DNA of 63,119 nt, filler included, from Hausera hauseri (lineage: Eukaryota), in NCBI GenBank assembly GCA_046269625.1. It is 10 parts of 10 records of this genome, joined end to end, with 100 filler letters (N's around TTAATTAATTAA, not from the genome) between each part and the next. Parts side by side here need not be neighbours in the genome. Positions count along the whole stretch, not along the records: positions 16,537 to 24,553 come from JBJURY010820973.1; 9 more parts are not named here. One strand, given 5' to 3'. Shown piece after piece: positions 6,387 through 61,939 of this stretch. Numbering within the stretch: the stretch's first letter is position 1; each line of letters starts with the position of its first letter. A model generated the notes under the pieces. The model made no database searches, had not been told where the DNA came from, and saw only the letters and a program-made list of their open reading frames with translations. Made by a program: the position numbers and the translations under genes.

Positions 6387-6486
6387 NNNNNNNNNNNNNN
6401 NNNNNNNNNNNNNNNNNNNNNNNNNNNNNNTTAATTAATTAANNNNNNNNNNNNNNNNNNNNNNNNNNNNNNNNNNNNNNNNNNNN
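6387..6486. other. Artificial contig spacer (N-TTAATTAATTAA-N)
   Basis: 100 nt of Ns around a six-frame-stop linker. Confidence 0.99.
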
Positions 6487-6733
6487 AGAACAGCTCCAGT
6501 GATTGACGAAAAGCAACTGGCATCGCTACTGTCGACGCCTAATTTGGATTTTTGTTTTAGAATTGAATTATTATTGTCTTTTATAATTGAATATTACCGA
6601 CTTCATCGGAAGTTTTTTATAGATGACGAAACGTTCAACATATCCACAGATGAGTGTCATGAATTGTTCGCTAAATTGTCAACGCGACACATGTTTGGAG
6701 TTGCAATTGAGTTCCTTCTTAAAAGCCGTATTT

Positions 6734-7010
6734 TCAATGGACCAATAGATCATGGGCGGCAAGGAAATCTAAGCCTATTATAGGAGATTTAATGTTGGCC
6801 ACGTGGAACTTCCAGAAAAACTTATCTGGCAAGTTGGCGAATGCGAAAGTCAATTCCGTGATTCCTGCAACGTGTAACAGTTGACCATTGGCAGTGAAAA
6901 GCGGTGGACAGTATATCATAGTCGATGTGGGAGCAAAGGACAAGGAAATGAGCGAAAAGGGAGCTCCTGAGTCTATAAGGTAGTTGATATATGAAGTATC
7001 TCTTCATAAC
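6734..7010 (-). pseudogene. Retropepsin (LTR retrotransposon aspartic protease) remnant
   Basis: YLIDSGAPFSL, LFTANG, FFWKFHVANIKSPIIGLDFLAAHDLLV; frameshifted; no RT follows. Confidence 0.85.
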
Positions 7011-7174
7011 AGTACAGTTTTCAACAGAAACACTGCAGAGGCGGTGTTGAAACGACCAGAAGTTTGAGCAATATTGCCTGCGCCAGAATGTGCCGTAAAA
7101 TCTGGCGGCATTATTAATTTTTTGAAGGTTTTGGAGAAAAGGAAGAAGAGGAAGAAAAGCGAGGAGATTTATCG

Positions 7175-8184
7175 TTGTAATGTTTACAATCAGGCACGCA
7201 TGACCTAGCCGGTTACTGTAACTTATTGTGGTAAATACAAATAGGGTTGTTCACAGTGTACCGTTCGCTGTAGAACCGACAACCCAAAAAGCACTTCCTA
7301 GCATCCCTTCGAAATCGCGTGTGATAGAAGCAAGTCATGCGTCCTCCAGGTAAAATGGATGAATAAGAGTGTCTAAAAATGCTTCTCTTCCTTGAAGGTC
7401 TGTTTTCACTTCGTCCAGGCCCATTATGATTATTCAGTTGGGTAGTAATGGTCGAAATCGACTGCTGCAACTTGTCAAACTTGCTGCATCATTTGCAATT
7501 GTTTAGTGAAAAATGTGGTATCTGTAGTTGGAGCACATGTAGTTACAGCTGCAATAGGGAGAGAACTGTTGGTATTAAGAATCTCAAAGTATTTGTCAGC
7601 CGTTACTGCCAGTTGTTCGATGGCAGTGGACTCGTCGACAACGCTGAGTAAGGCTCTGATTGAGATGGGCAAGGAGGAAAAGAAATAACGGCGAATTAAA
7701 TCCGCGTTATTCATAGGTGCCACTCCTAGCGCGTTGAGATGCAGAATAGCTTTTGGAGAAAGTCGGATGGCTTTTGGTTTCCTATGGTGTGGTCATTAAA
7801 ATTCTTTTGTATTATATTGTCAATCGAAGGATCCGCGACATGCAGTACAGCTTCACAGAGTGGCTCGTAAGGTGTCGAGGACTGTAGCAGCTCGAAGATG
7901 TTATTAATCTACTGCTTGACGTTGGCTCGAACAAAAGAATTTATGATGTTGTTCGATTTTAGCCACTGCTGGTGGAATTGGAGCCATGGTTTGCTGGAGT
8001 TGCTTTTGTCGAGGAAAAATTCAACACAAGATAAATTTAATGAACCTCGTGACTGTTGGGAGTGTGGCAGACGATAGACGTTGCTTGTATTCGTGTATTT
8101 ATCATCCGAGAAGGATGGATTTGAGTGCGATCCGCCACGAAGGCAAAATGGAGCACCAGATGGATGATGGGACGTTCGTGGCAT
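7175..8184 (-). pseudogene. Ty3/Gypsy CsRn1-like gag remnant with two CHCC-type zinc motifs
   Basis: KPWLQFHQQWL, KPSDF, LIRRYFFSSLPISIRALL, CFYHTRFRRDARKCFLGC and CIYH...ARSCVPDC; homologous to 17320-18330. Confidence 0.8.
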
Positions 8185-8879
8185 GTAAAAAGCAAAAGGG
8201 AGTCGGAAGGATGTATTATAAGCCCTTGATATATAAAATAGAAATCAGAAGTGTTATATTATGAGGACAAAGCGTTATATAAGAACTGTGCTGTCTCGTT
8301 GAGTGGAGCTTTTAAGGTTATAATGTGTTGATTGTAGCAAAAGACCAGGAAAGATAATTGTAATGAGGTCATCTCAAAGGAACAATGAAATGTACTGGGG
8401 GCTTGGGCGGTTACCTTTCGGGTTAAGAAGCCGTTCGAGCGTACATCCGGGATAGCGGTGGCAAATGATGATTGGGGTAAAGAAATATACAAAGATGTTA
8501 AGCTTAGAAACCCTTTAAAATGAAAAAGGTTTAAGCCAGGAAGGATCTGCATATGCGCAAAAAATGGTCACAATGGTGGAGGCAAATCAATGAAAAAAAT
8601 CTCACCCATCTGTATTTGAAGGTGGTTTTGCTGAACGCCATGACAGTATCCTCATTATGACCAATCATTGACGATGTGGTTTTGATACAAAATGACTGCG
8701 TTGAGCAATTTTCACCAGGACCGAATGTTGTTAAATTGATATGGGCGCCGTGTGACTTGATCTGTCTTTGTTGTGAGAGTATAATATTATCTGCGACTTG
8801 AGGAGCCATTCCTTCATTTAGAAAAGCTTTTACATCGCTATAATCACTTTTGCCACTCATTTTTTAACAGATGATGCTC

Positions 8880-11800
8880 GATCAGAAAGAAGAGAATTAA
8901 TTGATAAATATCCAAGATGGAAAAGAAAAGGCTTCAGTGCAGTTTGAACGTCATACACTGGCGTAAGTCTTTTACACAAAATATCTGTATTATTTCTTCT
9001 CGAATTACGAACTATAATATCCGATACTTTTATCATGTTCGTTCTCTTTACATTCTCAAAAATAGCAGCTTCGATCTATCTTCTATAGCTATTGTTTAAA
9101 TAGAACGAAATGAAACTACTGGATAACCAATTGCTCAGAATCCGTATCACATTTACAAAATTATTCGGAGACAGAGCTAGACAAAAGAGTAAAATCAACC
9201 TTGCCGGAGAACTGGAATCAATTATTCTATAAAGAAGATTTTGGGATGATTGTATCTGGTCAATTAGAGATGATGAGGTGCTGGATTTTCGTGTTTCGGT
9301 TAATGCAGGAAATGAATTGTGATCATCGAATATATTATAAAGAATAACATTTTTGGTTTCATTGTGCCAATGGAGCTGTACGGACTAAAGTTACAATCCT
9401 CAAAAGTCTAATAAGAAGTTCAAAAATGTTGCCAGCTTTATTTCGATCATCTGATAATGGAAACGGCATCCAATATACGTGTCCGGTGGCATACATTGGT
9501 GGACAATTGTAAATGGCAACAATGTCTCTAAGAAATGATAGAACATTCAGAGTTTTTGTTTTCTTCAGGATGTGGAATTGATTGGAAAATTAACTTAAAG
9601 GTAATGGACGTACATAAACGATTGCAAATGAATTGAATCACACAGTTTGCAAATATTTTTAAGGAAAACTTTTGAGCCTGTTGCATCTGAGCATTGCACT
9701 GGAGAGCGATCCAACAATTTAGTCGTCTAACTTCCAAAACCAGAAGTCTGACGCAAATGCAAAATTTCAACAGAAAAACCCCTAACAAGTAAATTCCCTC
9801 GAATTAGAGTTGCATTTTCGAAATAACGCATGTATTCCAGAAATTTGAGACGAGATAAGTCGTGGAGTATTAATCAAATTAAACCCATTTTCTTTTTTTA
9901 TGTAGTCGGCATATTGAATTAGTACAGCTCTATTTAATTCTGCACACAACCCATCGTCCATAATTGAATCATTCTCAATATTAGCAATTTTTTTGTTTTT
10001 GATATTAACTATTGTCTTTCGAACATTTGGCATAAATAACAGTGAGCTCAGTACAGAATGAAAAACTCGAGATGACCCTTTCATACATGACAAGAAGTCT
10101 AACTGTTCATTCGTTGAATTTTTGTCATACTCTATTTGCTTGAGTCCCGTTTTACCTTGAAGATATGAGAACGAATGTCGAAGCTTTTTGTTCAGCAAAC
10201 ACCGACTGCACTCTTGACAATAAGTCGATTGAAATTGTTGTAAATGATAAGATATTATATCATAATTTTGATCCATTTTTTTGAAACCAGAAGTGGAATT
10301 GAATAAGAGTCCTGATAAACTCTACTCAAATTTATGTTCGTAGAGATTTTTCTTTAAGACTGCGTCGGCTTATTTGTTGCGGAATTACTGAACAACCTTT
10401 GATTTGAACCTAGTTTTCTTACATTTCGACTTTGCGGTGAAAATGACCTTGGCGATCCACTCGGTCGACGATCAAGAGTAATATCACTGATATTACTCGA
10501 TTTCAGTTTATTTACGGGTCTTTGCAATGAATGGTTTTAAGTTACCGATTGGATGTGATAGAAAATTATTTTCCGTATATTCGTGATAAAGATCCAATCT
10601 CTGATACATAATCAAGTTAAGGATCTCGAATCGAGTTTTGTGACCATTGAGGTTGACATCAAGTAACGTCAGCAGGTTATCAAATTGTTCTTTGGAAAGA
10701 TTATATGAGATAATGTCAGTCTTGCATCCAACAATCTTCAACAGACATAATATTTGGCGTGGAAAAATAGTCCCATTCGGAACTCTGATGTCACAGAATT
10801 CAGGAAATGTTGTTGCAGAAAAGTTTGAGTCAAACGGTGGAAGTCTGAGTAAAGTTCGATACCGAGTACCGCCTCCTCCACTGGAGCATAAACTGGCAAC
10901 ACACCTGTCAAGACTTAAGTCTCCACTATCAACAAAAATCGATAAATTTTCATTCACGTATTTTTTCCACAACTCTTCAACTCTCTCTATAAGAATAAAA
11001 CTTCCATCCAATCCAGGGTATTCTTTTCCGCTTCTTGGAGATTTGCAGATCCATAAATTCCAATTATCATTCCCCAACCAAAATGGCGTAAATTTAATCG
11101 AATCTTGCATAAATTCCATGATATCAAACAACGTGCATTTCACATTATAATTCGATGCCGTTTCAATGTGCTTACCTTTTATCAACTGATTATCGTTTGT
11201 ACTAAAATTGTGTAAATATGTAAAAATATCACTGGAAAAGACGATATTTAAGCGTCCCGATTTGGAGAAGTTTAGAAAACTCGTATCTGATAAACACTGT
11301 TTGGTTGAATCAAAATTAAATCATCAACTAACATTAGAGACGTGGGAATGATGATGAACTTGAATATTATATCACTCGCAGTATGTTGGATTGTATTGGA
11401 AATTTTCTTTTTGAATTGATCCGTGTTGAATTGGCCTCGATACCACAGAGTCACAGAAACATCATATGGTTCTTCCACTGAACAATCATTTTCAATCACA
11501 CTGCTCAATGAAGTTTGTCAGAAATATATCTTTACTGGTATTTAATTTTGGTAAGCAAGAACTTTTAATGACCAAAGGATCTGATGACATTCGATAAATC
11601 AGTTGCACCGTGAAAATTGCTATGACCTCATTTGGAATTCCATGTGCAGCAGTTTGGTTATAGAGATAGATTTCACCATGTTGATCTTTACTCAAAAACA
11701 ACCTTTCAGACAATAATGAATCACTGAGCTTTGGTGATACAAAATGGAGTTGAAAATTTTGTTTTAAATAACAACAAAACGCCAACAAATTTTCTGCGGC

Positions 11801-12142
11801 TAAGGCTGGAACAGACCATGAAAATTGTTTGGGACTTTGGGGTTTATTGCTGTAATCTTCACTAAGAAGAAAATCCAAGTCTTCTTTGTTCAGCGAAACA
11901 ACGGAATTCCGAGATATGAATTCCGATAACTGTCGTAATACGAATGAATCGATTTTTCATCCAATATTTAAAATAATTGAGTTTAGCATGTCGTTATTGG
12001 GTTTTTTGACTCGGTGTATCGATAATTTAAGAAGCTTGCTTAATTTCGGAATGAAATTCACTTGATTAGTTATTTTTTGGAACATCTTTCAACGTACTGA
12101 AAAGAGGAGCCGATTTTATTGACATTATAACAATTTTCCAAC
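8880..12142 (-). pseudogene. SZT2: Decayed internal/C-terminal fragment of SZT2 (KICSTOR subunit)
   Basis: Colinear motifs recalled from SZT2: KIDSFVLRQL..SLNKEDLDFL, YLKQNF..FVSPK, IYLYNQ, TLWYRGQFN, PRQILCLL..ISYNL, RFEILNLIMYQRLDLYH, LNRAVLIQYADYI. In-frame stops and frameshifts present; 3' boundary approximate. Confidence 0.75.
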
Positions 12143-12143
12143 A

Positions 12144-12161
12144 ATCCCACTTCTGACACCA
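12144..12161 (-). promoter_or_regulatory. Primer-binding site complementary to the 3' end of tRNA-Leu
   Basis: Minus strand ...AACA-T-TGGTGTCAGAAGTGGGAT; matches the tRNA-Leu(CAA)-type 3' end ATCCCACTTCTGACACCA. Confidence 0.9.
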
Positions 12162-12162
12162 A

Positions 12163-12384
12163 TGTTGAGAATTGAATTATATCAGAAAGGAATAAATCCA
12201 AACGATGAGAAAATAGTTAGTAACAATATATTCTGTTCAAAAAGTCGGTAACAATATTCAATTTCAATATTTCAAATCAATGTTTTTTACATTTATACAT
12301 GATTATAAACATAATTTACGTTTATACCAGATCAGACAAATAAGAGCTGCTAACAACAAGAACAAAATTGTAAAAGTATGAGAT
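12163..12384 (-). mobile_element. 3' part of an LTR, truncated by the contig end
   Basis: Ends in CA just before the PBS. Shares colinear motifs aataaa(a)tcca, cggtaacaa and tatttcaaa(a)tcaat with the LTR at 22888-23422. Confidence 0.75.
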
Positions 12385-12484
12385 NNNNNNNNNNNNNNNN
12401 NNNNNNNNNNNNNNNNNNNNNNNNNNNNTTAATTAATTAANNNNNNNNNNNNNNNNNNNNNNNNNNNNNNNNNNNNNNNNNNNN
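12385..12484. other. Artificial contig spacer
   Basis: Ns plus TTAATTAATTAA. Confidence 0.99.
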
Positions 12485-12633
12485 TCTTTAGGGATGACTG
12501 ATTTATAGCGGCACAACAATTCATAAAATCGACAATAAGATTCAGAAGAGAAATTAGTTTCGACATGAGGTGGAAATTCGGCATACTTATAAGGCTTTTC
12601 TTCAATAGTTGTAGAAGAAGGAAATACTTATAG

Positions 12634-12879
12634 TTATACTTTATAAGTATTTCCTAAAGTGGTAAAAGCATGAAGCTTGACGGACGTCGGTGCATTATTT
12701 GCTATTCTGATCGGTACACGACCGAAGTGTACTCTTGCTAGTATGTTACTAAGTAATATATTCGAATTTAATGTCTCCTTTGGTTTGAAATTTACCAGTT
12801 GATTGTCATCTTGTTGAACTTGAGCATAGATTATTATCTCTGTTCTTGGTGGAATGTTTTCATCGACTGGTATCCACAC
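12634..12879 (-). pseudogene. Gypsy pol linker (degenerate dUTPase-like segment between protease and RT)
   Basis: IPPRTEIII...VPIRIANNAPTSVKLHAFTTLG pattern directly after the protease. Confidence 0.55.
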
Positions 12880-12899
12880 TTCTCAAAATTTCCTATCCT

Positions 12900-13270
12900 T
12901 AGCGTTTTTATGCCTTTGTCTGTACTGATTTCTATTAGTATTCCTGTTTGCAAGTCGATTGCTATATTTGGTAGTCTTTTTAGTAGATCATATCCTAAAA
13001 CTATGTCGTCAGTTAATTGTTCCATAATTGCAAATTCGTGATGGAAAAATTGTTTAAATATTTGAACTTCTGGGTTCCATTTAAACATTGGTTTCGACAT
13101 TTGGCCAAAAGCTCCTGTACTTCCTAGGTCTTTTGTAGATGGTGGGTATAACTGTCCTCTCAGCGTTTGATGTATTGAATCATTTTTAATGTAGGACACC
13201 TCAGAATCTGTATCGATTAATGCTTAAACTTCCCAATCTTCAAGAATGATTTTGGCGAAAGGTCTTCCTT
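12900..13270 (-). pseudogene. Retropepsin remnant
   Basis: GRPFAKIILEDWEV*ALIDTDSEVSYI...HEFAIMEQLTDDIVLGYDLL; catalytic DTG changed to DTD. Confidence 0.8.
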
Positions 13271-13781
13271 CAATTACTGCTCCAAAACAGTTTGATGCAA
13301 CTTTTGGGCGTTTAGTCGCCGATATTTTATGTCCGTTGATTCGGATTTCTGTAGAGGAAACTATATTTTCCAACAGTTGTTTTAATTCTCCGTTTGGATA
13401 AAATTCATTTTTTTCTATGTTCAATTTTTCCGTTTCATGTGTACTAATTAATGGTTCTCGATTGTTAGTGTGTGGTTCTATATTCTCGAAGGTTTTTAAC
13501 CTTGGACTTTCCCAGACAGTTGATCTAGTTTTTATATTCCGAGGTTCTCTAGGGGAATGCAATATTCTGTGGTCGTTGAGGGGCTGTCGATAATACATTT
13601 TCCGTAGGACTCAGTAACGTTTTGTTCCTTCATAAGGGTCTTCTAAACTAATTGTCCTTTTATAGATTTGTGTCTTATATAAACTCATTGATCGTTTGTC
13701 ACAGTCTTTATAGACTGGCGCGGTAGGGGGTAGCACAAGCAATGTTGCTTTAATGACCGAATACGTCTTATGTCTGTTTGT

Positions 13782-15775
13782 TCATGAAAGTACTTTTCCT
13801 CCTTTAGGCTCGTTATCATTTGAATTATTTCGTCGCGTATTAGGTTTTGTAAATTTCCGCTTGTACAAAAACATAGGCCTTCCTTTTCGTTTGCGATTAT
13901 GATAACCGAAATGACGTTCTTCGTCTGATTTCCATCTATTTTCTTCGTATGCCTTTAAAAACTTTCCAAAACGAGTAATGACTGCAGTCAGCATTTTACA
14001 TGAAAATCCGGTTAATGTAAATATTTCACAGCCATTTATTACTGCTTGAATGACGGCCTTAATCATTTGTATTAGGAAATATATTTCTAAGAATCCGGAT
14101 GCGACTTGGCCAAAAATCAAAAATCTTCCCCAAATTTTGTAGAGTATTTCTGTGGTTACTCGCTGATAATGGTTTACGCCAAGTAATGATTCCCATTTAG
14201 CTTGGTATCGAGTGTCATCCACTACAGAGGCCATGGCTCGATTTATTTCATGGGTCCGTTGTCGCGGAAAAGCGAGAATTTGTCCGAAAGCTTCAAGTTC
14301 CTTAGGTCAATATATGCCTTTTAACGATGTGTCTTAAAATTTGTCGTCTGTAATTCCTTTTTCGAGATTTGTTCCTGTTAATTTATTTGGTGCGGCAGTA
14401 ATACCTCCATGTGGCAGACTAACTAAATCCGTTTCACTACGTCTAAACACGGGTTCTCCTAAGCTTGCTTTACAATCCTTAAGGATTGTCGGTTCAGTTG
14501 CATTGTCTAATTGTACTCTAGTGAGTGGTATAGCTAACCTTGGAGTACTCTGGTAAATAACAGGAAGCTTCTGTATGCAAAGTTTTTCTTCAACGTTGAT
14601 TGGTACATCCCTTTTCTCACATTCGTAAGTCAATAGAACTTCACTTTTAACTCGACCGAAGATTCCTTCTCTCATAGGAATTATTGGGGATGCAAACTTA
14701 GGATTAGCGTAAATAAGAGCCAGTTTTGTCCTCATAATTTCCATATCCAATTTACAATCATGTGTTATCATTTTATGATATAATTCAGTTATTCCGACCT
14801 GCCCTTTGTAATAGAAATAATCGTCTCTGTTTTTCAGGTAGTCCTCAATCCGAATGTCTAGCGTTTCTAACTTGTAAGCCTTAGCATTTATTTCTGTCTC
14901 GGCGATGAAAAGCGCCTTATAGTTAGTAGCGAACATCACTACTTCACAACGAGAAATCATTTCTTTTTTAATAAATTTTAGCCCATGCTGATCAGAAATT
15001 AATACAGTAGGTGTAGGATGTTCTGATATGTCGTCGTGTGTTTATGAATTGGTATTAGATTTATCCGCATATCGCCTTCCGGTAGTTTTATTAAACTTTA
15101 ATTCCTTAATTTTGATAAAATTAGCCTCTTCCAGAGGGAGGTTCCCAGATTATAACAGAACTTCTAAAAGCACAAGTTCCGTCTTGTAAGTGACATTTTT
15201 GATTCTCGGTATATAGTTTGGTGACAATATGGAACATTACTTTCTGTGTTCGCATCTCTGATTCATAAAAATCCACGACCACTACGTTTGCTTGTAATCT
15301 TTTTCCAGTGACGTATTCCGCTCCGTTACAATGTCCGTTATGCACGCCTAACCTTCCGACCACTTCCTTGTATGCTCTAATTATCTTTCTTGATAGCATT
15401 TTCAATTCCATACTATCCCATTGTACTCTTCCGTTCTCTTTAGCCTGTTTGCAGTGCTGGCGTTATAAGTTCATCGGAATTGGAGGGGTTGTTGGTTTAA
15501 TTATTGAAGACTGTCCGTGCATTAGTCCACAGTGAAAAATGCTACGAGATCTTTCAGCATACATTCCATTCCATCTAATGATATCAATTCTTGTTGTTGG
15601 TACAAAAAATAATTTTTCTCTCTCGTTTCTAACCTGTGCGGTCTGACATCTTCGCACACTTCCAAATCTATTGGGGAATATTTCTGCCTTAGTTTAAACT
15701 TATCGTATTCGTATACGGTAACAGCGCCTATGTGTTTTATTAGCATCATCAAGGTGAGTAAGCTGATAAGCCAAT
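13782..15775 (-). pseudogene. Chuvirus-like / gB-type (class III) envelope glycoprotein, fragmented
   Basis: Internal signal peptide WLISLLTLMMLIKHIGA, then IFHCGLMH, CNGAEY, CxxxxGxC..IIWEPP, DCKLDMEIM, EVLLTYEC, CIQKLPV, PLTRV, and a TM region FGQVASGFLEIYFLIQMIK..INGCEIFTLTGFS. Confidence 0.75.
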
Positions 15776-16436
15776 TTGTTTCATTTTTCTGGTTACTACT
15801 ATCTGTCGTTGTTAAATTATGTAGCATGCCTTCAAGCCTATTGTAATTTCCGGACCGTTTATTTTCTTCTTTTTCGAATATTCTTAACCAATTTACTTCG
15901 TAGGGTAGCTTTTTTGCCGCTGTTTGTGATAAGCTTGTAGCTCTATTAATTTCCTTCTCTCGATTAGGGGTTATTTTGATAGCTAAGTACAGTAAAAGTT
16001 TTCTCAGTTCTTCAATGGTGTTTTCCACCATGATCTTCTCGACTACCGAGTCATCGGTTAAGTTTCTTTTTGATAATTTGAAACGTGAACTCCTCGTCAT
16101 CCTAGCTGCATCGAATATCTCTTTCTCTCTATCATCTAATGTGTCGCCTTGGAGGCTTGAACAATTTACAATGCGTATTAAATTCTTCATTGTCTGTGTT
16201 GAGGGTAGGTATCGACATCTGTTTCAATTCTCTAATCAATTCCCCATTATAGTCAACTTCTTGTGTCTTCTTATGCCTACCGACTGGGCGTTTCGGCCTT
16301 GGGACATTGGCTATTATTTCACTCAGTGGCACTAAATTCTTATCGTATTGTTCCTTGTACTCATCCGTTTGTAAATACTCGAAATACATTGCAGCATCTC
16401 GGACTCCCATGATTTGTTCTACGCATTGTTCCGTCT
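15776..16436 (-). pseudogene. Unidentified helical/charged domain fused N-terminally to the glycoprotein (possible gag C-terminus)
   Basis: ORF 15522..16190 runs in frame into the glycoprotein signal peptide; ORF 16132..16410 overlaps it by a frameshift. Confidence 0.4.
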
Positions 16437-16536
16437 NNNNNNNNNNNNNNNNNNNNNNNNNNNNNNNNNNNNNNNNNNNNTTAATTAATTAANNNNNNNN
16501 NNNNNNNNNNNNNNNNNNNNNNNNNNNNNNNNNNNN
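16437..16536. other. Artificial contig spacer
   Basis: Ns plus TTAATTAATTAA. Confidence 0.99.
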
Positions 16537-17170
16537 GGACAAGAGGTATGAACGAATTGTTGTAAACTTGCGGGTAGTTGTTGGAATGTTGTAACTGATG
16601 ATGAACCGAGGTTTCTAGCAATACTTGGTATATGATGATTAGTTGTTGATGAGGAATCAAGTGGAGCCTGTAGTAGGATGGTCTGGTCCGGAACCGTGTT
16701 TGAGTAAGTGCTATTGTTCAGTGATTGTACAGAAAATACCAGATTGTTATTGGAATTAGAACGAAGTACCGAGTGTTTTAAAATAGATGGCTTATTTAAT
16801 GTAGACTGTGTTGTCGTTGTAATTCTGTCTATATTTGTGTTATGGTTTACAGATGTATTTGCTTTTAGACAACGTCGGTTAAAATCAACTAGTAAATTAT
16901 AGTGTGAAAGGAAATATGGGCCAAGTATTGCAGTCTGCACGTTAGCGACTGTAAATGTCCAATGAAATGACGAGGAAAAGTTTTGTAGAGTGAAAGATAG
17001 TTTGCAGGTTCCGGCAATACGAAGACCTTGACCAAATGCAGTGTATAAAGGTTTTATTTTAGTTAAAGAATGTTGAACCGGAAAAGAAAGTAGGAGTAGT
17101 GAGATAGCTGCACCCGTATCGATTAGAAAATCTATGGATTGAATGTTAGGATTAGAGATAGCAGCTTTTA
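16537..17170 (-). pseudogene. Retropepsin plus Ser/Thr-rich linker of a CsRn1-like element
   Basis: DFLIDTGAAISLL, FHWTFTVANVQTAILGPYFLSHYNLLVDF. Confidence 0.85.
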
Positions 17171-17319
17171 ATGTGAAAACTGCAAATGAAGAGTGTCGGC
17201 AAAAGGAATTAGATAGATTGCCTTTGTCAGGATCTACCGCGAATACTAGAGGCGAAATCAGTATTTTTGTATTGGTGAGTTAGAACGGTTACTATTAGAG
17301 ATGTTGGGACGTCTATCCA

Positions 17320-18330
17320 TCGAGTAGTTTTTGCTAGTTTTGTAGGCACAGCCAGAAGTACAACTCCGAGCACTAGATCCGAATTTTGCATGATAGATGC
17401 AAATTATATTACTTGAATCTAGATTTGGCGAATATTTACAACCTAAGCAACATTTATTTGCGTTGTTATTAAATTTGGTTTGGTAGTAGCATACGAATGA
17501 CCTCGTAGGTGACGGTGTTCGATTTCTGGAAGGAGAACGTGTTCGATTAGACGAAGGAACATTACGACGATGTAAAGAAAGGTCATTCAATTTATCATTG
17601 ATAATGTTGATGGTGTGTTGGTGCCGCATTTTCGGCGAGTAATTGGTTTAACTGCTGTTCAAGTGTAACGCTGTTGGTAGTAACTGCTGCGTAAATGACT
17701 GGTTGAGTGTGTGCATTCAAAACCTCCTATGTTCTGTCCGTCAGTTCGGCCAATTTATCAAGTGTTGTCGATTCTTCAACGACAGTAGGCCCTAATTTGT
17801 ATGGGCAATGCGTTCAGGAAGTAGCATCGCAAAAGATCAGTGTTGTGTTGTTTAGTCACGCCAAGTGTTTGAAGTTGAGCGAGTGACGCTCTGAGGAAAT
17901 CAGATGGTTTTATCGTCCCCATAGCATTGTCGTTGAAGAAACGATGAATTATTGAGTCCATAGATGGTTCCGTAAGCTTTAAAACGGCGTTGTAAAGATG
18001 CGTGTATGGATCGGGTTTCTGGAAGATATCTAACAAATCATGAATGGCCGTTTTTACAGTTGTTGGTAAAAGACAAAGCAGGTTATGGGCTTTAATTAGC
18101 GGATCAGTGGTGTTGTTAGATTGCAGCCAAAGTTTGTGAAAGCTAAGCCACGTTTTGTTGGACTGCTCGTGGTCAATAAAATACTCCGTGCACTGAGAAA
18201 TGTGTTTGACTGACGAGGTTGAAGAAGTATAACTACTGAAAGAAGATGGCGTGGTAACAATAGACGATTTTTGGTTCAACGCAAAATGAGATGTTTTGGA
18301 GGTAGTTTTGTCACTGGTGTTAATGGTAGG
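17320..18330 (-). pseudogene. CsRn1-like gag remnant with two CHCC-type motifs
   Basis: KTWLSFHKLWL, DPYTHLYNAVL, KPSDFLR, FLNALPIQIR, CYYQTKFNNNANKCCLGC, CIYHAKFGSSARSCTSGC. Confidence 0.85.
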
Positions 18331-18715
18331 TGAAGATTATCATTCCACCACGTATGCGAATGTGTATGTGAATGATGATGCAATGGCTTGAAGGTACAGA
18401 AAGGTTACGAAGGTTGGCGCTAGTTATTGGTAGATTATTGTACGTAAGATAAAAGTCAGATGTTGGCAACGTGTAGTATGTAGTTGTGTAAGTAGGATGC
18501 GTCTATGAAATGTGTTATTCTGTGTGTAAATAAATGGTGATTATTTAGAAAGAATAAAAACGAAAGAGTCGGTGTAAACACAATTGGTTGGAGTGGTGAC
18601 GAAACACACCATGGTGTGGGACTCATTGACTCAGGACAAAAGGTTAAGTGGTTAATCATGCTATGGTTTGTTTGTAACTCAAGAGTATGAGATGACTGGA
18701 CCACTTCATTAATTT

Positions 18716-19019
18716 CTGTGGCCATCATCTAGTTCACGAATTCTTGCGAGTGCAAGATATCTCGAAAAACTATGTCGTGGACAAAGAATAAAGTGAAACA
18801 ACGGTTGAATGGAATAGACGAAAATTGTGATCTGAAGAATAGAGAAAAGAGTGTTTTGCTTAATGATTTAGGATTCCAAGGGCAGCACGAGTCATGCCGG
18901 AATAATAGCAATGTGTCATCAAAAGACGTCTTCACTAGATAACAATTGTAGGTCAAATATTCGAGACGATCAAAAACGGGCGGAATCATTAATAAAGAGA
19001 AAAGGTAATGCTGCCAACA
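18716..19019 (-). mobile_element. Possible degenerate short LTR plus tRNA-Trp-like PBS belonging to the CsRn1-like element
   Basis: Minus strand starts TGTTGGCAGC and ends GAACTAGA-TGATGGCCACAG, which resembles ACTACA-TGGTGACC with several mismatches. Confidence 0.3.
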
Positions 19020-19269
19020 TGGACCGGTAACTACTTAAAAAAATTGAAGTAGCCAATAGAAATTACAATACCCAAACTTTGGCCAGCTTCTATTCTCTTT
19101 ACCTCAGCGTAAATATTGACGGTATTCTTACAGAAAACGGCCAATGTCGTGGAATTATGATTCGAAAAGTGCATAAATAGGGATATGATCAAATAAATAA
19201 CGCCGCGCCGTAGGTCTAGTGCTTCAGGTAATTCCTTGTGGAAAAAACGCGGAAAAGTTTGAATGGTCT

Positions 19270-20400
19270 TAGATCGTCAATTCGGAAATTCTTGTGTGAT
19301 ACTTAGCAGAGCCACATGGGGATTTATAATCGTAACAGTTCGAGTATTCACGACTCCAACAAAACCTCGTTTATATTCGTCATATTTGGCTTTACAATCA
19401 ATAAGAGAAAATACGACAATTTCCGATTGATTATTTTCGTCCGTTTGTGACTTTGATATTAAATTTACAAGCTCGCCAATTTTTTCTACCGATACTAAGA
19501 ATGTACAATGTTGCCCTACTAATTGATCTTCATTCAGAAAGGGTTCTATATCTATGATAGTATTGTTCAATGAAACAAGATCGGGTATCGGGAAAAGTAA
19601 AGCATTCTGTAAAGCAAACGGACTACTCTTGTCAACACCGCAATACTGTTCGATTTTACTAAATTTCTCGTTTATCAACAAGGCAAACGCACATGACGCC
19701 TGCACATGATATGTGATCCTTTGGTAAATTCACATCTACGGCAACATAGAACACAGATACCACGTCGCCAATATGAAATGATGAACATCATCTCTGAATA
19801 ATCCGAATTTCCCCACGACGTAATGTTTATCAAATCACTCACAAAATCTCGTAAAGAAAAACTGAATACTCCACTAAATTGCGTACTATTCGACTGATTA
19901 TAATTAAGTATAATTTTGATGTGACTTTTTGTTACGATTAAATTTCTAACTTTTACGGAATAGTTAAATAAGTTTATAATCTGTTCCGTCAACATTCGAT
20001 TATTACCAACGGTAGATGGAGATTTGGATGTGAACCCACATAAAGGAAGTAGCTTTTCACTGACACCTTGATTTTGACAAATGACAAACAGTAGGCACAT
20101 TGTAAAAGATGTACCGTAATCATTAATCGGTTTGTTTTCGACGAATTCTACAGACCGGAATATGGTTTTAAAAAATGGTTTAAGCAGGGTTGTGAACACG
20201 TAATTGGATATTCCACAACGAATGGTATGTACTAAACGCTTATATGAACATACAGCAAGTCCAAAACTACTTTTGCGACCATGTAAACAAGATTCAGGTA
20301 TTTCCCTACTTACAAAACCAAGGGAAGGCGATGCTGTGTCAACTGTATAATGGACAAAGAAGTAGGGGAAAAGTGGGTAAAAAAATATCATGAATAAAAA
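19270..20400 (-). pseudogene. CLEC16A: Decayed fragment of a CLEC16A-like (GOP-1/Ema) gene
   Basis: KPFFKTIF..NDYGTSFTMCLLFVICQNQGVS..NRMLTEQIINLFN resembles RPFLDMVY..DDYHALFVLCLLYAMSHNKGM..NHPLAERLIRIMN. DLVSLNN lies downstream. Frameshifted. Confidence 0.6.
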
Positions 20401-20464
20401 ATGTATAAAAAATATTCACCAACCGAACAATGCATAATGGTGAATCTCACCTCATCGTGTACAG

Positions 20465-21975
20465 GTTTCTCCATGATCGGTGGTAGCATGTTGTATTGTG
20501 GAGACTGCAAATCGATGTTTTGCAAGTCAACCGCGTCATCTTACTGGTGATCTGTCCGAATTCGAGTTGTAACTTATGGAATACCTCAGAGGCCAAATCT
20601 GATCGATTCTTTCGAATTTAAAGTATACCTAGTAGAAACGCCGATTCTAAATCGTTGATTCGATCGACAGTGTCGCTGATGTTAAGTGCCATAGACAGAC
20701 AATGCTGGATATCGTCGGCCGATAGAACGGTGAGATCAATATCGAATGTACCATTAATCATACAAATTAAAAATCCGCATTTGACAAAGAAGGTAACAAG
20801 ACACATCTTTTATATCAGTATTCGATAGATATTCTTTAAGTCTATCCGAATCTCCCCCATTATTATAATTGGATAATTTCACATTACTTAAAAAATTTTT
20901 TGAAATCAGATGAATAAATAATCTGTAACGGATTAGCGCACAACGTAGACTCAATGTTTGTAACTGATGAGTCATCACAGACGAATTTATTAACTAACTT
21001 TGATTGAAACTTTTGTAATGGATTTGTAATTCCTGCATCTCTTCCAAAAATAATCATTGACGAAACAGAGAGATATTGAGAAGTTGCCATATCAACAATA
21101 AATAGACATGGTACGTTAATGAAAATGCTTATTGTAGAAGATGTTTCCGAATAAAATATCATTTCAATTTCATAGAAATTAATACGGCAAACCGAAACAG
21201 TTTTTTTGTTATCAAACTGGCAGATTCAATTTTCAGACAATCATTAAATACCTGAATAGAAAATAAATATTTTAAGTCTTTCCAGTTACAGGAGGTATTG
21301 AAAACCACTTCATAAATCGTGGAATCCGACTGTTCTAATCCGATTGTAGGTTTCTGGAATTCAAGATATCGTTTTACCAATAATTTTTATTGGTCATTTG
21401 CGATCACTATTAATTCTTCAAGAAAAGCAAATCAAAGTTCAATAGTAGGCAGGAATCCCAAAGCCAAACGGTGCGAAGAAGGTCACCGGATGAAACCGAA
21501 CAAAACAAACCATTTTTTAAAGCTTCCAAAGAGATTTGTAAATTCTTTACTGATAAATTTCTTCTTTACATATTTGTCAAAAACGTACGAATCTGATTTC
21601 GGAATTTGCATGTCGGTTTGATCATGCCGAAATATGTTACTATTAAAATTACCGATTTTCAAAAACAGCTTGGCCAACAATTGGTCTTGTGTACATATTG
21701 GATCGTGATCACTGTGAATTTGGGAATATTTATTACCGATATATCGGTGAACAACGGCACATTTAACACATAATGTAACATACAAATTAATCGAACACCA
21801 TTCGGGGTTTCCGGCCCTGCATTCAACACAATTTCGATTGTAATCATTGTCGAAAATTTTATCCATGAAACTTTTCGTGTTTAAATTTAAAATGGATGAC
21901 CACTTTTGACATGATTCGACATTTCGGAAAACGATTTCCAATTCAACTGTGTTGCTGAATTTCTTCAGATTATTT
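20465..21975 (-). pseudogene. Decayed ARAP-like fragment (PH end, ArfGAP zinc finger, PH region, start of RhoGAP)
   Basis: NRNCVECRAGNPEWCSINLYVTLCVKCAVVHRYIG..SQIHS, LKIGNFNSN, KYVKKKF. LPPIMEK near 20465 resembles a RhoGAP start. The ArfGAP call is firm; ARAP is inferred. Confidence 0.65.
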
Positions 21976-22875
21976 AATGATACAATCGAATTGCTTCTTT
22001 TAAAATGAGGAGCACATCGATTTTCACTATACGTAGGTGGTCCAAATTTAAAATTGACACAACTGTCCTGAAGTAAGTTGAGATAGATTAAAGCTACATA
22101 TGTTATAGGCCATGTAAGCACATCGAACATAAACTTCAAGAGCACATTTTCTCATGTTATGCATTTTATGGTAAAAAAGCACTCAATGTGTCAAAAACTT
22201 TACTGTTTGAACAAATAAGTTTCTCGAGCCGAACAGTTGTATGCGACGTTGAATAACGACTTAAACTTTTGAGGAATGCAGCTTCAGTCTCATTCTTCCC
22301 AACTTCGTAACTCGGAGTTTTTGTTCAATAATCAAAACTTCTCTGAGTTTGGCAACAATTTTTGCGAACGATTTAGAATATAAATTGGTTAAAACTTTCA
22401 AAATTATACCATTCAGATCAGTAACAAGGCCAGGTAAATATTTTTCAAGATAATCCATTAAGACAATAATAATTTTATTTTTTTTCATTGAGCTTGCTAT
22501 GGGAAAATATATCCATGGCTGAAACTGAGTATGTAAATATATGTTCAGAATTTTCCATTTCCTGGAACTTCATTTCACGATCCAAATAATTTCGTAAAAG
22601 GTTTTCAATTTCATGCTTGGCATTTCCTCTGATACCATCAGAATAAACTTCTGCAAGTTCAAGAGTTGGTCTCAAGATCTGTAAATAGGCCAATTTGAAA
22701 TTTTCTTCTTCAATTTCATTCAGAAAATTTTCAATTATTTTACGAAGCTCCTTTGATGGAAAACGAGAAAACAATGAAGAATAATTGGATGTATATTGAC
22801 CCATAACATTTCAAAGATTAGTAACGAGTCTATCTGGTAATAAACACAGTCGAACCATATTTGTATTTCTGTATA
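21976..22875 (-). pseudogene. ACAC: Decayed central-domain fragment of acetyl-CoA carboxylase
   Basis: MGQYTSNYSSLFSRFPSK, YSDGIRG, LLRNYL, IFSHS..KKNKII, TPSYE, EKLI..KVFDTL, FYH..ALEVYVRCAYMAY are colinear with the animal ACC central region; frameshifts present. Confidence 0.9.
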
Positions 22876-22886
22876 TTCTGACACCA
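22876..22886 (-). promoter_or_regulatory. Truncated tRNA-Leu PBS (TGGTGTCAGAA)
   Basis: Same ACA-T-TGGTGTCAGAA junction as 12151-12165. Confidence 0.8.
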
Positions 22887-22887
22887 A

Positions 22888-23422
22888 TGTTTGTAGGGTT
22901 TTTTCATAATAAAATCCATTAACGCGGTAACAAAGCTTTATATTTTTTCAATTCTAAACTAATTGATTATTTCAAAATCAATATCTACAATATTTATATA
23001 TACTATACAAATATTTATATGCAGTTTTGAAAATTTTTATGGTAGAATTCGTCGAATATTTTCTTTCCGGCAGAATATCAATTCATTCCGATGTATATTT
23101 TTGTTTTTGGCCGAACATCATATTGAATCTTGACCAAAGGAATACTCAAATTCGTATTGTTATGACCCGACACGACAGTAAAATTCGTTATAATTTTTTT
23201 ATCTTGAGTAAAAGAACAATAGCATGTTTTCGACTGTAAACTCGATTGTTTGGTTGGGTTGTTATAGTTCGTATAGGACGTTCCGGGACGACGAAATAAA
23301 GCACCAAGCACATAAATTTGTCGGCGAATGAAAAACAAGTGAAAATAAAATTGTATTTACAGTTAAATAAAGAAATGAAATAAAAACGAAAGCACGATCT
23401 CGTTGTGCACAACAGCACCATA
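22888..23422 (-). mobile_element. Complete ~535-bp LTR preceded by a PPT and followed by a PBS
   Basis: Minus strand GCAAGGGGGTGA-TATGGTG (TGTGGTG variant) ... TATA-like TATATAAATA ... AAACA-T-PBS. Confidence 0.7.
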
Positions 23423-24238
23423 TCACCCCCTTGCAAAGTCAGTTTTTTCAGGCGGGGTCCAACGTGAGTCTTCTGGTGACCAACACGTCGGTGGATTGTA
23501 ACCGAGAAGACGAAATACGTTCGGCAGGAATTCTTCGACTTCTCTCCAATAGGACGATGCAATGTCGATGAAGCTCACAATGGCAGCGCCGTATATTTCG
23601 GTATCGCCACGTGATGCAATATACGTAGTTAAAAACAGTGCACGGTCCTTTTCTTTCCAATTGATTTGGAGATTTTGTGAATAACTATGTAATGAACTCT
23701 CGATGTAGACCGCAAAATGTTACAATAATTCTTTCTTGGATGAGCTTACTAAGTGTTTTGATCATGGTTGAAAATAATAAAATTAATCAGTATACAAATT
23801 CAGCAGACGAAGAAATTGCTACTCCTAACTAGGTTTTATCAGATAGTGCTTTACCATCGCAAACTGTGTATTCAGCATTCAATAATCAATTTATTATGCC
23901 GAATAATTGTTTTAGTTCTTATGTTTTACCCGTTACGCTATTAAATAATAAAAACAATTACATATTTTACAACAGTTCCATTATTACAGATTTAGACCTG
24001 GTTCAGAAGAGTATTGTCGTGTTAACTTAGTTGGAAATTCCAAGGCAGCAAAATACCTGAAATACGGGTATAAATACAATTACTCTTCAAAAATTCGATC
24101 GCCTTCAAGAATTATATAATCGTTTTCCACTTTTGAACAAACTGCTGGTTAAACGAACATACTAGAAATCTTTTGAGTATCGACAGAATTTTACAGGAGT
24201 CGGACATGTTGCACAGACTTAAAGAAAAACGACTTTGC

Positions 24239-24553
24239 AAAAGGGGAGGTGATGTGGTGCCCAAATTGACCCACCAAAATATAAGAATTATATGTGTGTA
24301 ATTTTTAAAGTTGTTTTAAATTTGTGAAATTTTAAAAATTTGTGATTTTCATTTCGAAATATATGGTACCGTTAAAAGTTCGTCAGTGATTATTTCCCAA
24401 ATATATTCCAAATAATTTTCTACGAAAATACTTCATCACAATTTAAGGAAATTAAAATGCCAAATATTCACACACAGACATTATTCTATTTCATTGTAAA
24501 TATTTTGTTATAACAATAAAAGTTTTTTCATGTCTTTTTATTAATAGTAAATA
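24239..24553 (+). mobile_element. PPT plus start of a related 3' LTR in the opposite orientation (LTR from 24253)
   Basis: aaaaacgactttgcaaaaggggaggtga-TGTGGTGC; inverted match to 23415-23447. Confidence 0.7.
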
Positions 24554-24653
24554 NNNNNNNNNNNNNNNNNNNNNNNNNNNNNNNNNNNNNNNNNNNNTTA
24601 ATTAATTAANNNNNNNNNNNNNNNNNNNNNNNNNNNNNNNNNNNNNNNNNNNN
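24554..24653. other. Artificial contig spacer
   Basis: Ns plus TTAATTAATTAA. Confidence 0.99.
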
Positions 24654-27714: not shown

Positions 27715-28414
27715 CTAATAATCTGTGCCGCACTGTACATTAAGCACATAAAATTTCATATATTCTGCAATTGGAAGAATCACATCTTTCTTTATCTTAT
27801 ATTCCTGCAAATCTATTTTGACTTTAGTTGTTTGGTCTAAGATTTTAGTAACATTTTCATTTGAATAAATAGTTTTGTCATTTGCATGAGATCGTAGGAA
27901 TATGTTTCTTTTGCTCAAATTCAGTTTCGGATGGACCATGATAATACCGTCATTTAAAATTTTTATATGTTTATCAGTCAGGTTTTAAATGTAATAGTCA
28001 TATTTGCTTTTCTGAATATCAACATTTGTCAAAGTTAGAATTGACTACTTTTTCACCATATATAATAGAGGATCCTATTGAAATTGTTTCAATTATAGCT
28101 CCTCATAGTATTACGACAGTTTCGAGAGTTGTGCAATATACGTATAAACTGCATCTTTGATTTTGCTTAGGCACGGAAGTCATGATTGGTATAGTGATAT
28201 TGAATATTTGTTTTATCAACTTTGTAAAGGAAATCAGGTGTTGTTTATTGGCATTGTAAAAGTCTTCATATTTGATCTGGCACATTACCTCACATGTATG
28301 GCATATATAATAATCAGCCCTGTTGTATAGATAGCTGAAGTATTTCTGCACAACGTTTTTGCAATTTTCAAGCTCGTGGATTTGAGCCAAGTACTGTTTG
28401 TATAGACTGCACAT
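27715..28414 (-). pseudogene. Cys/His-motif ORF remnant, homologous to ORFs upstream of the pPolB genes
   Basis: YYICHTCEVMCQIKYEDFYNANKQHLISFTK; DNA-level homolog at 30213-30430 and protein-level similarity to 40073-40200. Confidence 0.55.
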
Positions 28415-30212: not shown

Positions 30213-30879
30213 TATTATATGTGCTCTACATGTGAGGTAGTGTGCCAGACCAAATATGAAGACTTTTACAATGCTTATAAACAACACCTGATTCCCTTCA
30301 CCAAGTCAAAAAAAACAATTATTCAATACGGCTATGTCAATAATGACTTTCTAGCATAAGAAAAGTCAAAGATGCAGAACTGTCATAATACTATGAGGAG
30401 CTATTATAGATACAAATTCAATAAGATCCTTTATTATATTTGCCCATGATGTGAGACTGTATGCGGCACAGATCACATACAATTCTATTATGATCACAAA
30501 CATCATTTGAGTCACTGCGCATCAAAGTCAAAGAAGGCCATCTTTAATGAGTAACATAATTTTCATGCATCTGCTTCGTAGTGTTATGCTTCGCAGTATT
30601 CTGCCTCACGTTATTCTGCTAGATCTGATGCAGCAGCTGGGAAGTATATTAGAGAATTGAAACGCGCAGCCGCATCATGCTCAGCAGCATCAGGCGCAGC
30701 CACATCAGGCACGGCCACATCAGACGCACAGGCTCCATCAAAAAGCCAAAGACAGCAGCCAGTTGATGCAGGAGCATTAAAGAAAAATTCCGCAGATATG
30801 TTATTGAGGCAACTGATCAAAAAACGCTCCAAGACACCCTCTCATACACAAAGGACGAGACAGATGGAATTCTTCAGGA

Positions 30880-44602: not shown

Positions 44603-45742
44603 TTATGATGGAGACTGAACAACGCCCACCGGCTGCTGCTGTGTTACACAATGAATCATTCCACCCAGTGAGAACAAGTAGCGAGAATCGATCCCAACGA
44701 CTTCTCGAGTCGGATATAATTGCTGAATGATATTGTTGGCAATCGCGTCATTTGGGTCACTGTAGTTAGGAACAAGCACCTTTGTGTTACCAATGTAGTA
44801 ATTCGCATATGACCCTTTATATTTCAGACTTTTTCCATTACGCAATTTGACCTTCGTACTTGTCAGTGGTACTGTGACTATATCATACTTCACTCCAGCA
44901 GCATTTTTGGAATTATACAATTGCGATATATCACTTGTCGATACGCCCCATTCATACTCTAAATCACGTTTTGACATTGTCAGAATTGTTGTCGAATTAA
45001 TAAATCGCACGAATCCATCAATATGCATATCTGTTATATCTTTACCTGCCACACCATGCAACCATATCATATTTGTAATGCCGTAGTACTGGGTCATATA
45101 ACTCGCGAACTGTTCTGCCGTCATTATTGGATTCCTGTTTTTATTGATTGTAGAGCTCTTTGTTGCCATCATTGTTCCGTGTCCATCGGCTTCAACAGCG
45201 CCACCTTCAGTTATAATTTCACTTGATAAATCTATGAGCTTTACATTTTTAAGTTTAGCCACATTCAGAGCTACAAGTGCATCATTCGTATAAGGTGCCT
45301 TTTGTCCCCATCCGTTGAATCCGTAACGTATCGCAACAAACTTCCCATTTCTACCTTTTGCGAATATTGGTGCAGTATCCCTGGCCCATACATCGTTGGT
45401 TTTCATAATGTTGAAATCAACCCTTTTTAACGGGACTCCGGCAGTATTCAGAAGGTCGGTAATGCGCTTTTGTTCATCATCATCATATGCAACTATATGG
45501 ACATTCTCACCGTCAACAAGAGCGCGAGTCATTGCAACCCAGGAGGGATCAAGTTCATTACGAAACATTTTCCCGTAAGTATATTCATGTGGCCAAATTA
45601 ACCATGTACCCTCATGTGGCTCGGCTTCATTAGGGAATCTATATAGAATATTTTCAATTTGGGCGTTGACACCTTTGAGATACATTGTCACTGACAGCAG
45701 CAGTGTAAGATAAAGCACAAATGCTGAAACTTTCATCATCAT
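44603..45742 (-). CDS. aguA: Secreted agmatine deiminase / peptidylarginine-deiminase family protein (intact)
   Basis: HEGTWLIWPH, NDVWARD, EGGA, NRNP, DMHIDG, SYANY, GGMIHCVTQQQP with catalytic D/H/D/C present. Signal peptide MMMKVSAFVLYLTLLLSVTMYLKGVNA. First ATG is at 45742; the track's 45766 is a TTG. Confidence 0.93.
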   Translation of the reverse strand: MMMKVSAFVLYLTLLLSVTMYLKGVNAQIENILYRFPNEAEPHEGTWLIWPHEYTYGKMFRNELDPSWVAMTRALVDGENVHIVAYDDDEQKRITDLLNTAGVPLKRVDFNIMKTNDVWARDTAPIFAKGRNGKFVAIRYGFNGWGQKAPYTNDALVALNVAKLKNVKLIDLSSEIITEGGAVEADGHGTMMATKSSTINKNRNPIMTAEQFASYMTQYYGITNMIWLHGVAGKDITDMHIDGFVRFINSTTILTMSKRDLEYEWGVSTSDISQLYNSKNAAGVKYDIVTVPLTSTKVKLRNGKSLKYKGSYANYYIGNTKVLVPNYSDPNDAIANNIIQQLYPTREVVGIDSRYLFSLGGMIHCVTQQQPVGVVQSPS

Positions 45743-46599
45743 CGATATAGGTTCAATTCTATACAAAATTGATGAAAAAGTACATTAAACAAGATACTTT
45801 ACTTAGTTGATAATTTAGATACTGTTCGCCTTTATATGTAATATTTATAGCCCTAGTTAAACAGACCGTGTATGAATTGAAATTTAAATAAAACACCTGT
45901 ATATATAGTTGTTTAGTATTGTGCGTATAATGCTTGATTGGCCAAAGACATGCAATATTTGCATTCAAAATGAACTATTTGTCAATATGGAATCACGAAT
46001 GTTTTAAATAGCTGATCGCAATTATTCGCTACTTAACAATCCTACTCTTTTCCTTATGCAATTAACTTTGACGCCTGAAATCCCAACCATTCAAATAAGT
46101 CACAGAGACACATTCTCGTCACATTGTTGATTTCTGTTCACAATGTTGTATTTAACAGAAGTGTCGTTGAACTAAGATCCTTTGAAAGTTTAATTATGTA
46201 TCCTTTTAGTCAATAAAACATGATTATTTTTGTATTCAAACCTAATTTCAAGTGGTAATTATTGATAGTTTCACATACTTCTTCAGGTTGACAAAATGTA
46301 TTGATTAGAAAATCGATATGAACTGAGTAAATGATGAATCAGTCACCAAGTTACAGACTTAATCAATCTTCTATGGTTATGACATTTAATAAACTAGCAA
46401 GAAAATGAAAATATGTTGAATATTTTATTTATGGTGAAATTTAGGACGTTTTGCATTATTTAAGTTTTCTACACATACTTCAAAAAGACATCACATTCTT
46501 CTAGAAAATGTGATTTATCTCTAACATGTTTAACTTCCGGCCTTGAAGCAACAAAAGGAGGAAGGCATCATCAAAATTATACTACCATATTGATACAGA

Positions 46600-61780: not shown

Positions 61781-61939
61781 TCTGAAAAAGAAAATATAAA
61801 GGTTAATCTTTAAACAAAGGATGGTTTTAAACCAAAACCAATTCTTTGTTTGATGACAGGATAACCCGCTCTGTAATTGTCAGGTTATTTTATCATACGG
61901 GTCAACAGGGTTTTCCAGTTCCCTTAATTCCCATTCTGA

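Follow-up and report, generated by a model that had tools for sequence, protein, structure and literature searches.

How did fragments of four host genes come to lie in one direction behind a primer binding site (PBS) of retrotransposon type? The question is raised by a contig of Hausera hauseri (JBJURY010820973.1, assembly GCA_046269625.1) that occupies positions 16537-24553 of our window, the 63,119-nt stretch of DNA that was analysed as a whole. The window joins ten short contigs of differing composition with N spacers between them, and mobile-element genes are found on most of these contigs. On the minus strand of the contig in question, about 3.6 kb of dead DNA consists of pieces of ACC, ARAP, CLEC16A and MEIOB, all running in one direction behind a retrotransposon-type PBS (Table 1). 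The mosaic of ACC, ARAP and CLEC16A fragments in the original prediction is real, and MEIOB is a fourth gene that had been overlooked.

Four gene pieces on one strand

All four pieces are on the minus strand, decayed, and internal or near N-terminal. The locus is now a pseudogene and no protein product is expected. The fragments had been described as internal, sense and decayed remains of housekeeping genes, which holds except that MEIOB is a meiosis gene.

The ACC piece was recognised by the Pfam family ACC_central (E 4.7e-12) and by human ACC1 (E 1e-7), both within 22475-22810. For the alignment, a profile of 12 proteins from public contigs was used, taken from 12 of 27 loci under the requirement of at least 300 residues past the motif. 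The frameshift-aware alignment scored 296, whereas 30 shuffles reached at most 37. Over 274 aligned columns, four frameshifts, one stop, eight lost codons and one inserted codon were counted. The ArfGAP piece matched the Pfam family ArfGap with an E value of 6.4e-18, and its named top relatives were ARAP1/2. Its alignment over 1.07 kb contained three frameshifts, one stop and five inserted codons. The best relatives were two proteins, P0001 and P0002 (AT-rich), with scores of 372 and 352, whereas 14 other ARAP-like proteins scored 210 or less. The host would be an AT-rich eukaryote and probably an invertebrate animal.

The lesions were compared with the public run X1, possibly the source sample itself, in which 55% of the sampled words are present. 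Its contigs were placed at 80% likeness, 8 of the 4903 pieces were itemised, and the summed depth does not equal copy number. X1 record 7 (22097-22584) was identical to the ACC piece, so that three of the ACC frameshifts cannot be put down to this assembly alone as errors. Records 5 and 6 were identical to the ARAP piece, and because all three contigs agree there, the same is true for most of the lesions in ACC and ARAP.

The ACC/ARAP junction was found at 22017-21998 and not, as had been proposed, at about 21975; the ARAP similarity stops near 20932 and not at about 20465. Between ARAP and CLEC16A, the positions 20930-20200 did not match the ARAP and ACC profiles, and 18/40 and 14/40 shuffles, respectively, reached the score. 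This stretch probably belongs to the CLEC16A piece as its upstream portion. Across it, the summed depth in X1 climbs from 30 to 90 and to 243. The CLEC16A_C match itself (E 9.7e-5, 21.5 bits) narrowly missed the curated cut-off of 22 bits. For MEIOB, the profile region 18-69 was matched from 19956 with an E value of 8.1e-9 and the region 73-92 followed in the next frame with an E value of 0.13. The MEIOB piece presumably runs on to about 19280.

In X1, the summed depth was 5.6-9.7 at 21629-22968, 13-30 in the 3' part of ARAP and 85-243 in the CLEC16A-MEIOB part. At the listed sites in 19251-20421, 9-18 differing X1 contigs were observed, and about one contig in the ACC part. Extra contigs exist for CLEC16A-MEIOB and none for ACC. 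The CLEC16A and MEIOB parts are repeated together in extent.

The primer binding site and a second locus

The core of the PBS, TGGTGTCAGAA, follows directly after ...AACA-T at 22886-22876, and 11 of the 18 PBS bases are kept. A 16-nt junction is common to this site, to a full PBS at 12161 in another contig of the window and to the complete LTR (long terminal repeat) element L028 from viral contigs. By composition, the junction is expected by chance at 6e-6 per 8-kb contig, a softer figure than it appears since the motif was picked post hoc. Among 2.9 million viral contigs, 74 exact matches were found, one of them in an LTR element bearing a reverse transcriptase; the 74 matches agree with a rate of the order of 6e-6 per contig. 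The weight of the match is raised by its place at the ACC boundary, and a chance origin of the PBS-like site appears unlikely. Leucine PBSs are typical of the Mag and mdg3 lineages, as far as the available portion of the source goes (PMC3286476). The portions available of PMC8556966 and PMC4299795 hold nothing on PBS by clade or on PBS-anchored capture.

ACC had been thought to start at the first base past the PBS. The ACC piece is there, but its significant similarity starts at 22840, 35 nt past the PBS core, and the stretch between scores no better than shuffles. Likewise, of the claimed LTR (22888-23422) followed by a tRNA-Leu PBS, the 11-nt core stands, whereas the LTR lacks a partner, a polypurine tract (PPT) and a target-site duplication (TSD) in the contig and starts in an arm of an inverted repeat. 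The paired LTRs with TSDs that were to be found are thus absent from the contig. Three to five X1 contigs are related to the candidate LTR at 23197-23308, and much of it has a summed depth of 78. The candidate LTR was also considered as the biotin-carrier (upstream coding) region of ACC; this was rejected, with 59/200 shuffles reaching the local score, an anchored score of 0 and no support from the PDB or the Atlas.

The full PBS belongs to a second locus on the minus strand of the contig 6487-12384, where an LTR-like end, the PBS, about 3.5 kb of broken open reading frames (ORFs) and a gag-protease region follow each other. A one-frame read-through of the ORFs was searched against 177,635 PDB sequences and gave three matches, all to SZT2, the best with an E value of 0.052, which is not significant alone. 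The matches cover residues 2225-2302 and 2641-2728 in the same order as in SZT2, with 347 codons between the two stretches here versus 416 residues in the human protein. Three single-ORF queries of the PDB gave no match to SZT2, the Atlas gave none, and a single-sequence fold was unusable (pLDDT 34). By its sequence, the cargo of about 3.5 kb is likely SZT2, and we assume that the SZT2-like stretch covers about 12100-8900.

The gag-protease regions of both loci are 57% identical in nucleotides, and their proteases are 40% identical. Both Leu-PBS sites in the window are followed by internal pieces of host genes in sense orientation; this is a count of 2/2 in 63 kb, from contigs that look selected for mobile-element genes. 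The proposed role of the PBS as a recombination hotspot is not supported at this number of sites (n = 2). That the four pieces and SZT2 all lie in sense to their own PBS has a chance of 1 in 32. The element had been called non-autonomous, which is not borne out as both loci continue into gag-protease, possibly of the same element and possibly not.

Table 1. Positions of the gene pieces, element parts and flanking features in the window
Feature	Position	Strand	Basis
11-nt core of tRNA-Leu type PBS, one base after CA	22876..22886	-	motif TGGTGTCAGAA
ACC central region, ~275 codons	22017..22840	-	Pfam, human ACC1, frameshift-aware profile alignment
ARAP-type ArfGAP: end of PH domain, ArfGAP, downstream region	20932..21998	-	Pfam, alignment
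Stretch without Pfam match between ARAP and CLEC16A	20185..20931	-	profile tests
CLEC16A internal fragment	19957..20184	-	Pfam CLEC16A_C, profile 231-302
MEIOB N-terminal OB fold	19728..19956	-	Pfam OB_MEIOB_N
Tail, frame of last MEIOB-like ORF kept, without Pfam match	19031..19276	-	
Candidate LTR, TGTT...AACA, 527 nt, 30% GC, TATA-like boxes, no AATAAA	22888..23414	-	sequence
Full 18-nt tRNA-Leu PBS after ...AACA-T, second locus	12144..12161	-	
Likely SZT2 internal fragment, decayed, second locus	10511..11815	-	PDB sequence search
Related decayed gag-protease, second locus	6734..8244	-	
Decayed gag (DUF7041-like) and aspartic protease, high-copy Ty3/gypsy element	16860..18336	-	Pfam DUF7041 E 0.019
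559-nt segment, 8-nt inverted ends (TGTTGGCA...TGCCAACA), LTR-like	18461..19019	-	sequence
Right arm of inverted repeat, overlapping TG start of claimed LTR	23403..23466		
Cse1 (exportin-2) internal fragment, decayed	23555..23758	-	Pfam Cse1 E 8.2e-7, profile 236-304
Left arm of imperfect inverted repeat, about 60 nt	24205..24264		local alignment

Origin of the chimera

Partial, internal pieces of host genes, as expected of a chimera made by LTR-mediated retroposition, were found here, and they lie in sense to the element RNA, with the cargo, the PBS and the gag-protease region all on the minus strand. At the ACC/ARAP and CLEC16A/MEIOB junctions, coding sequence is fused to coding sequence within few codons. 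The former is in frame within the single ORF 21483-22151, and the latter, at about 19957, is in frame within the ORF 19675-20415. For both tool-supported internal junctions to be in frame, the chance is 1 in 9. Either chance or a selection that spares the element RNA nonsense-mediated decay could explain the in-frame junctions.

No intron-sized insert was observed in the ACC or ARAP alignment, and a crude filter for GT-AG introns gave no candidate in ACC, ARAP, CLEC16A, MEIOB or the SZT2-like stretch. With the same filter, one candidate each was found in Cse1, a gene fragment directly upstream, and in the tail at 19031-19276. The one in Cse1 (23987-23938, 50 nt) was rejected as a retained intron: its removal does not restore the frame, it is readable as coding, and 4/100 shuffles gave as much with a filter that was designed post hoc. 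Six different ACC loci from other organisms, all plainly genomic, were compared, leaving out unsplit loci of transcript size. The region is split one to four times in four of them (L002/L015, L020, L021 and L024/L026). We infer from these features an RNA origin of the cargo.

Taken together, the locus behaves as an LTR-retroposition chimera and is a candidate member of this class. We consider it on balance probable that ACC, ARAP, CLEC16A and MEIOB were joined by LTR-mediated retroposition. A Ty3/gypsy element primed by tRNA-Leu would have supplied the reverse transcriptase, which would have switched repeatedly among co-packaged germ-line mRNAs, and the last switch would have occurred inside the PBS by a faulty second-strand transfer, leaving 11 of the 18 bases. 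A CLEC16A-MEIOB subfamily would have spread first, with further cargo added stepwise at the PBS side; a spread before the 5' additions fits the extra X1 contigs that exist for this part and not for ACC. The chimeras would have been copied on as pseudo-elements and then decayed, and an inverted-repeat element with the Cse1 piece would have inserted upstream later. LTR-mediated retroposition is described as giving internal fragments, chimeras of two, three and four genes and secondary spread (PMC5131818, in part), and PBS-directed errors of strand transfer are described for HIV-1 (PMC12657518, in part). Of the proposed pack-LTR capture, the same-sense, decayed cargo behind a PBS-like site that is unlikely to be chance was supported, whereas the LTR itself was not, and the mechanism had already been published (PMC5131818).

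Several observations weigh against this origin. No second LTR, PPT or TSD is present in the contig, which ends inside gag-protease, and the TG start of the candidate LTR lies inside the right inverted-repeat arm. The two LTR ends of the ACC locus and the second locus are not significantly alike (44/500 shuffles), and X1 has no contigs related at 80% to the 80 nt directly ahead of the PBS (bin depth 7.6). Two registers allow a reading of ACC codons through the PBS, neither of which is significant (20/100 shuffles). The parent ACC, which necessarily exists, is not evident in X1 at 80%, and its absence sits poorly with ACC as the youngest piece. None of the 8 itemised pieces of 4903 bridges PBS/ACC, ACC/ARAP or CLEC16A/MEIOB in X1, itself possibly the source sample. 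Finally, two of the six genomic ACC loci (L004 and L023, on long contigs) are intronless in the region. With these two unsplit loci and a Cse1 piece without a convincing intron, the host may simply be intron-poor, and in an intron-poor host the argument from missing introns is void.

Such a host would also allow a capture at the DNA level, in which a Pack-TIR or Helitron-like element gathers genomic pieces and the remnant of an LTR, together with its PBS, is a further piece that was captured or inserted. Capture of this kind may occur in the genome, as the Cse1 fragment lies between significant inverted repeats and is repeated in X1. As far as the available portions of these papers go, Helitrons capture fragments serially and amplify them (PMC4224331), with as many as nine of them in maize (PMC6431247), and Pack-TIRs are present in animals (PMC8277862). 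The missing LTR pair fits as well. Around the ACC-MEIOB block, however, neither a pair of terminal inverted repeats (TIRs) nor a Helitron 3' end was found; the sole significant inverted pair closes upstream, and of four candidate Helitron ends that were folded, an AT-rich hairpin near 19055-19030 lacked CTRR. No intron, UTR or intergenic piece was recognised in the 3.6 kb and the approximately 3.5 kb of cargo, and both PBS sites stand at the head of cargo, which also speaks against this explanation. We regard it as rather unlikely.

The contig is built of decayed repeats, and the pieces might have been independent retrocopies or duplicates that were joined with LTR debris by deletions and ectopic recombination. 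The PBS 11-mer would then be ACC coding sequence or a stray remnant, in line with the ACC codons that read across it and with the single-copy state of the ACC part in X1. Such an origin is improbable in view of the 16 nt that the site at the ACC boundary shares with a genuine LTR/PBS junction, of the uniform orientation, the in-frame coding fusions and the same layout in a second contig, and of the joint repetition of the CLEC16A and MEIOB parts. That separate pseudogene pieces were joined by the assembly is very improbable, although the assembly is fragmented and mixed, with ten short contigs, and the three junctions lack an itemised X1 piece. All 30 bins of the stretch are covered in X1 at 80%, and the sequence around the junctions is non-repetitive, with the depth of a single copy. 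Record 5 passes the end of the ARAP similarity by 36 nt without a difference, and in-frame joins with a uniform orientation are not expected from a misassembly.

LTR-mediated retroposition could be taken further. In this Ty3/gypsy gag-protease lineage, the leader between PBS and gag might serve as a cargo bay, where repeated faults of second-strand transfer fuse new pieces of germ-line mRNA at the PBS, the older ones move downstream and spread with the family, and joins that keep the frame have an advantage. We hold this to be quite doubtful. If it held, hundreds of such chimeras could be present in the genome, since two subfamilies, only 57% alike in gag, carry different cargo at the same place.

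Flanking elements and known systems

The inverted-repeat arms upstream were aligned locally with a score of 44, whereas 500 shuffles reached at most 34. At 23457, 48 X1 contigs have a different letter, and Cse1-related sequence is found in many contigs (31 at 23701); the summed depth of the Cse1 element is 130-2800. The Cse1 fragment, which we assume to reach about 24190, is flanked by terminal inverted repeats as in Pack-TIRs. No TSD was seen by eye at either end placement, and the copy is old. By its sequence, the repeated Cse1 fragment between inverted repeats appears Pack-TIR-like.

Downstream of the cargo, the 559-nt segment is highly repeated and reaches, together with gag, a summed depth of more than 1000. 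It has no TSD and, unlike the upstream candidate LTR, is not followed by a TGG PBS. Its similarity to 22888-23414 was at chance level (47/200 shuffles), as was that to the other LTR end. No relatives of gag and protease were found in viral contigs. At 18461-18390 and 8251-8175, both on the minus strand, CA and a TCTGA-pyrimidine-rich stretch precede gag without a TGG PBS. By eye these stretches look like a branch point and a splice acceptor; their mutual likeness is not significant (83/200 shuffles).

The stretch had no match in JGI metagenomes, none of the ten window ORFs was present in the protein collection, and no Rfam match was obtained in 6480-24600. Among the listed holders of the stretch there was no RNA run. 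Nothing here speaks for the proposed roles in small-RNA production and exon shuffling, and the copy is dead. Homolog searches with ACC and CLEC16A-MEIOB were empty, where ACC exceeds the 2000-residue limit of the search.

Elsewhere in the window, an intact intronless ORF of a Porphyromonas-type peptidyl-arginine deiminase with a hydrophobic N-terminus (44603-45784, minus strand, Pfam E 1.5e-89) lies beside decayed PolB-like ORFs that look Polinton-like by eye. Fragments of a Monjiviricetes-type fusion glycoprotein (13782-15041, minus strand, Pfam E 1e-15 to 1e-16) are found on a retroelement-like contig. The region 59523-63066 (minus strand) contains ORFs with a RING finger (E 6.5e-5), a weak match to a DEDD exonuclease and further long ORFs. 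At 51355-53854 (minus strand), a CpG-poor contig carries ORFs for a LINE-type endonuclease and reverse transcriptase in a vertebrate style, which we take to be fish-like; because of them, the assembly appears to mix organisms. A 257-nt repeat, 76% identical, is common to two contigs (28057-28312 and 30213-30442).

Known LTR-retroposition chimeras of animals include the two-gene chimera of BATUMI, the retrocopies of BLASTOPIA and mouse MERVL 'Super', which holds four genes in about 4 kb (Tan et al. 2016, PMC5131818; this source and those below are used in part). Like the ACC-MEIOB block, they combine truncated internal parts of several genes, all in one sense, behind sequence of an LTR element; they have spread further, as the block may have, and 'Super' is similar in size and gene number. 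Both LTRs, intron loss and microsimilarity were demonstrated there, whereas the ACC-MEIOB block has a candidate LTR and a putative loss of introns. In BLASTOPIA, about 1.8 kb of internal element sequence precedes the cargo, in contrast to cargo at the PBS or at most 35 nt from it at the ACC locus. The word 'PBS' does not occur in the main text of PMC5131818 or in 9 of its 10 supplements that were searched. Maize Bs1, likewise an LTR element, carries parts of three cellular genes that are not linked, but a hybrid protein is reported for it, whereas the ACC-MEIOB locus is frameshifted and dead and its LTR is a candidate (PMC5131818).

Pack-TIRs and Helitrons share gene fragments with the locus, and serial capture and multicopy spread with its proposed history, which suits the Cse1 piece (PMC8277862, PMC4224331, PMC6431247). 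They usually keep introns, UTRs or promoters and no PBS is expected in them, whereas the ACC-MEIOB block has no recognised TIR or Helitron end. In the aberrant second-strand transfer products of HIV-1, a faulty plus-strand transfer likewise places junctions at the PBS or beside it, but these products arise by deletion or by read-through of the tRNA inside a single virus, and no cellular mRNA is captured (PMC12657518).

The mechanism and multi-gene chimeras are known; what is unusual here is cargo that begins from the PBS, ahead of gag, in two diverged loci. No description of PBS-anchored serial mRNA capture was found in the titles and abstract starts searched, a scope outside of which most subscription papers fall. 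The locus, now decayed, would add one more case of multi-gene LTR-mediated retroposition, and so of a known kind of exon shuffling, from an invertebrate-like genome that is unstudied. If capture at the PBS is the rule, such loci may offer a natural series in which errors of second-strand transfer could be compared with internal template switches and the order of the cargo could be followed.

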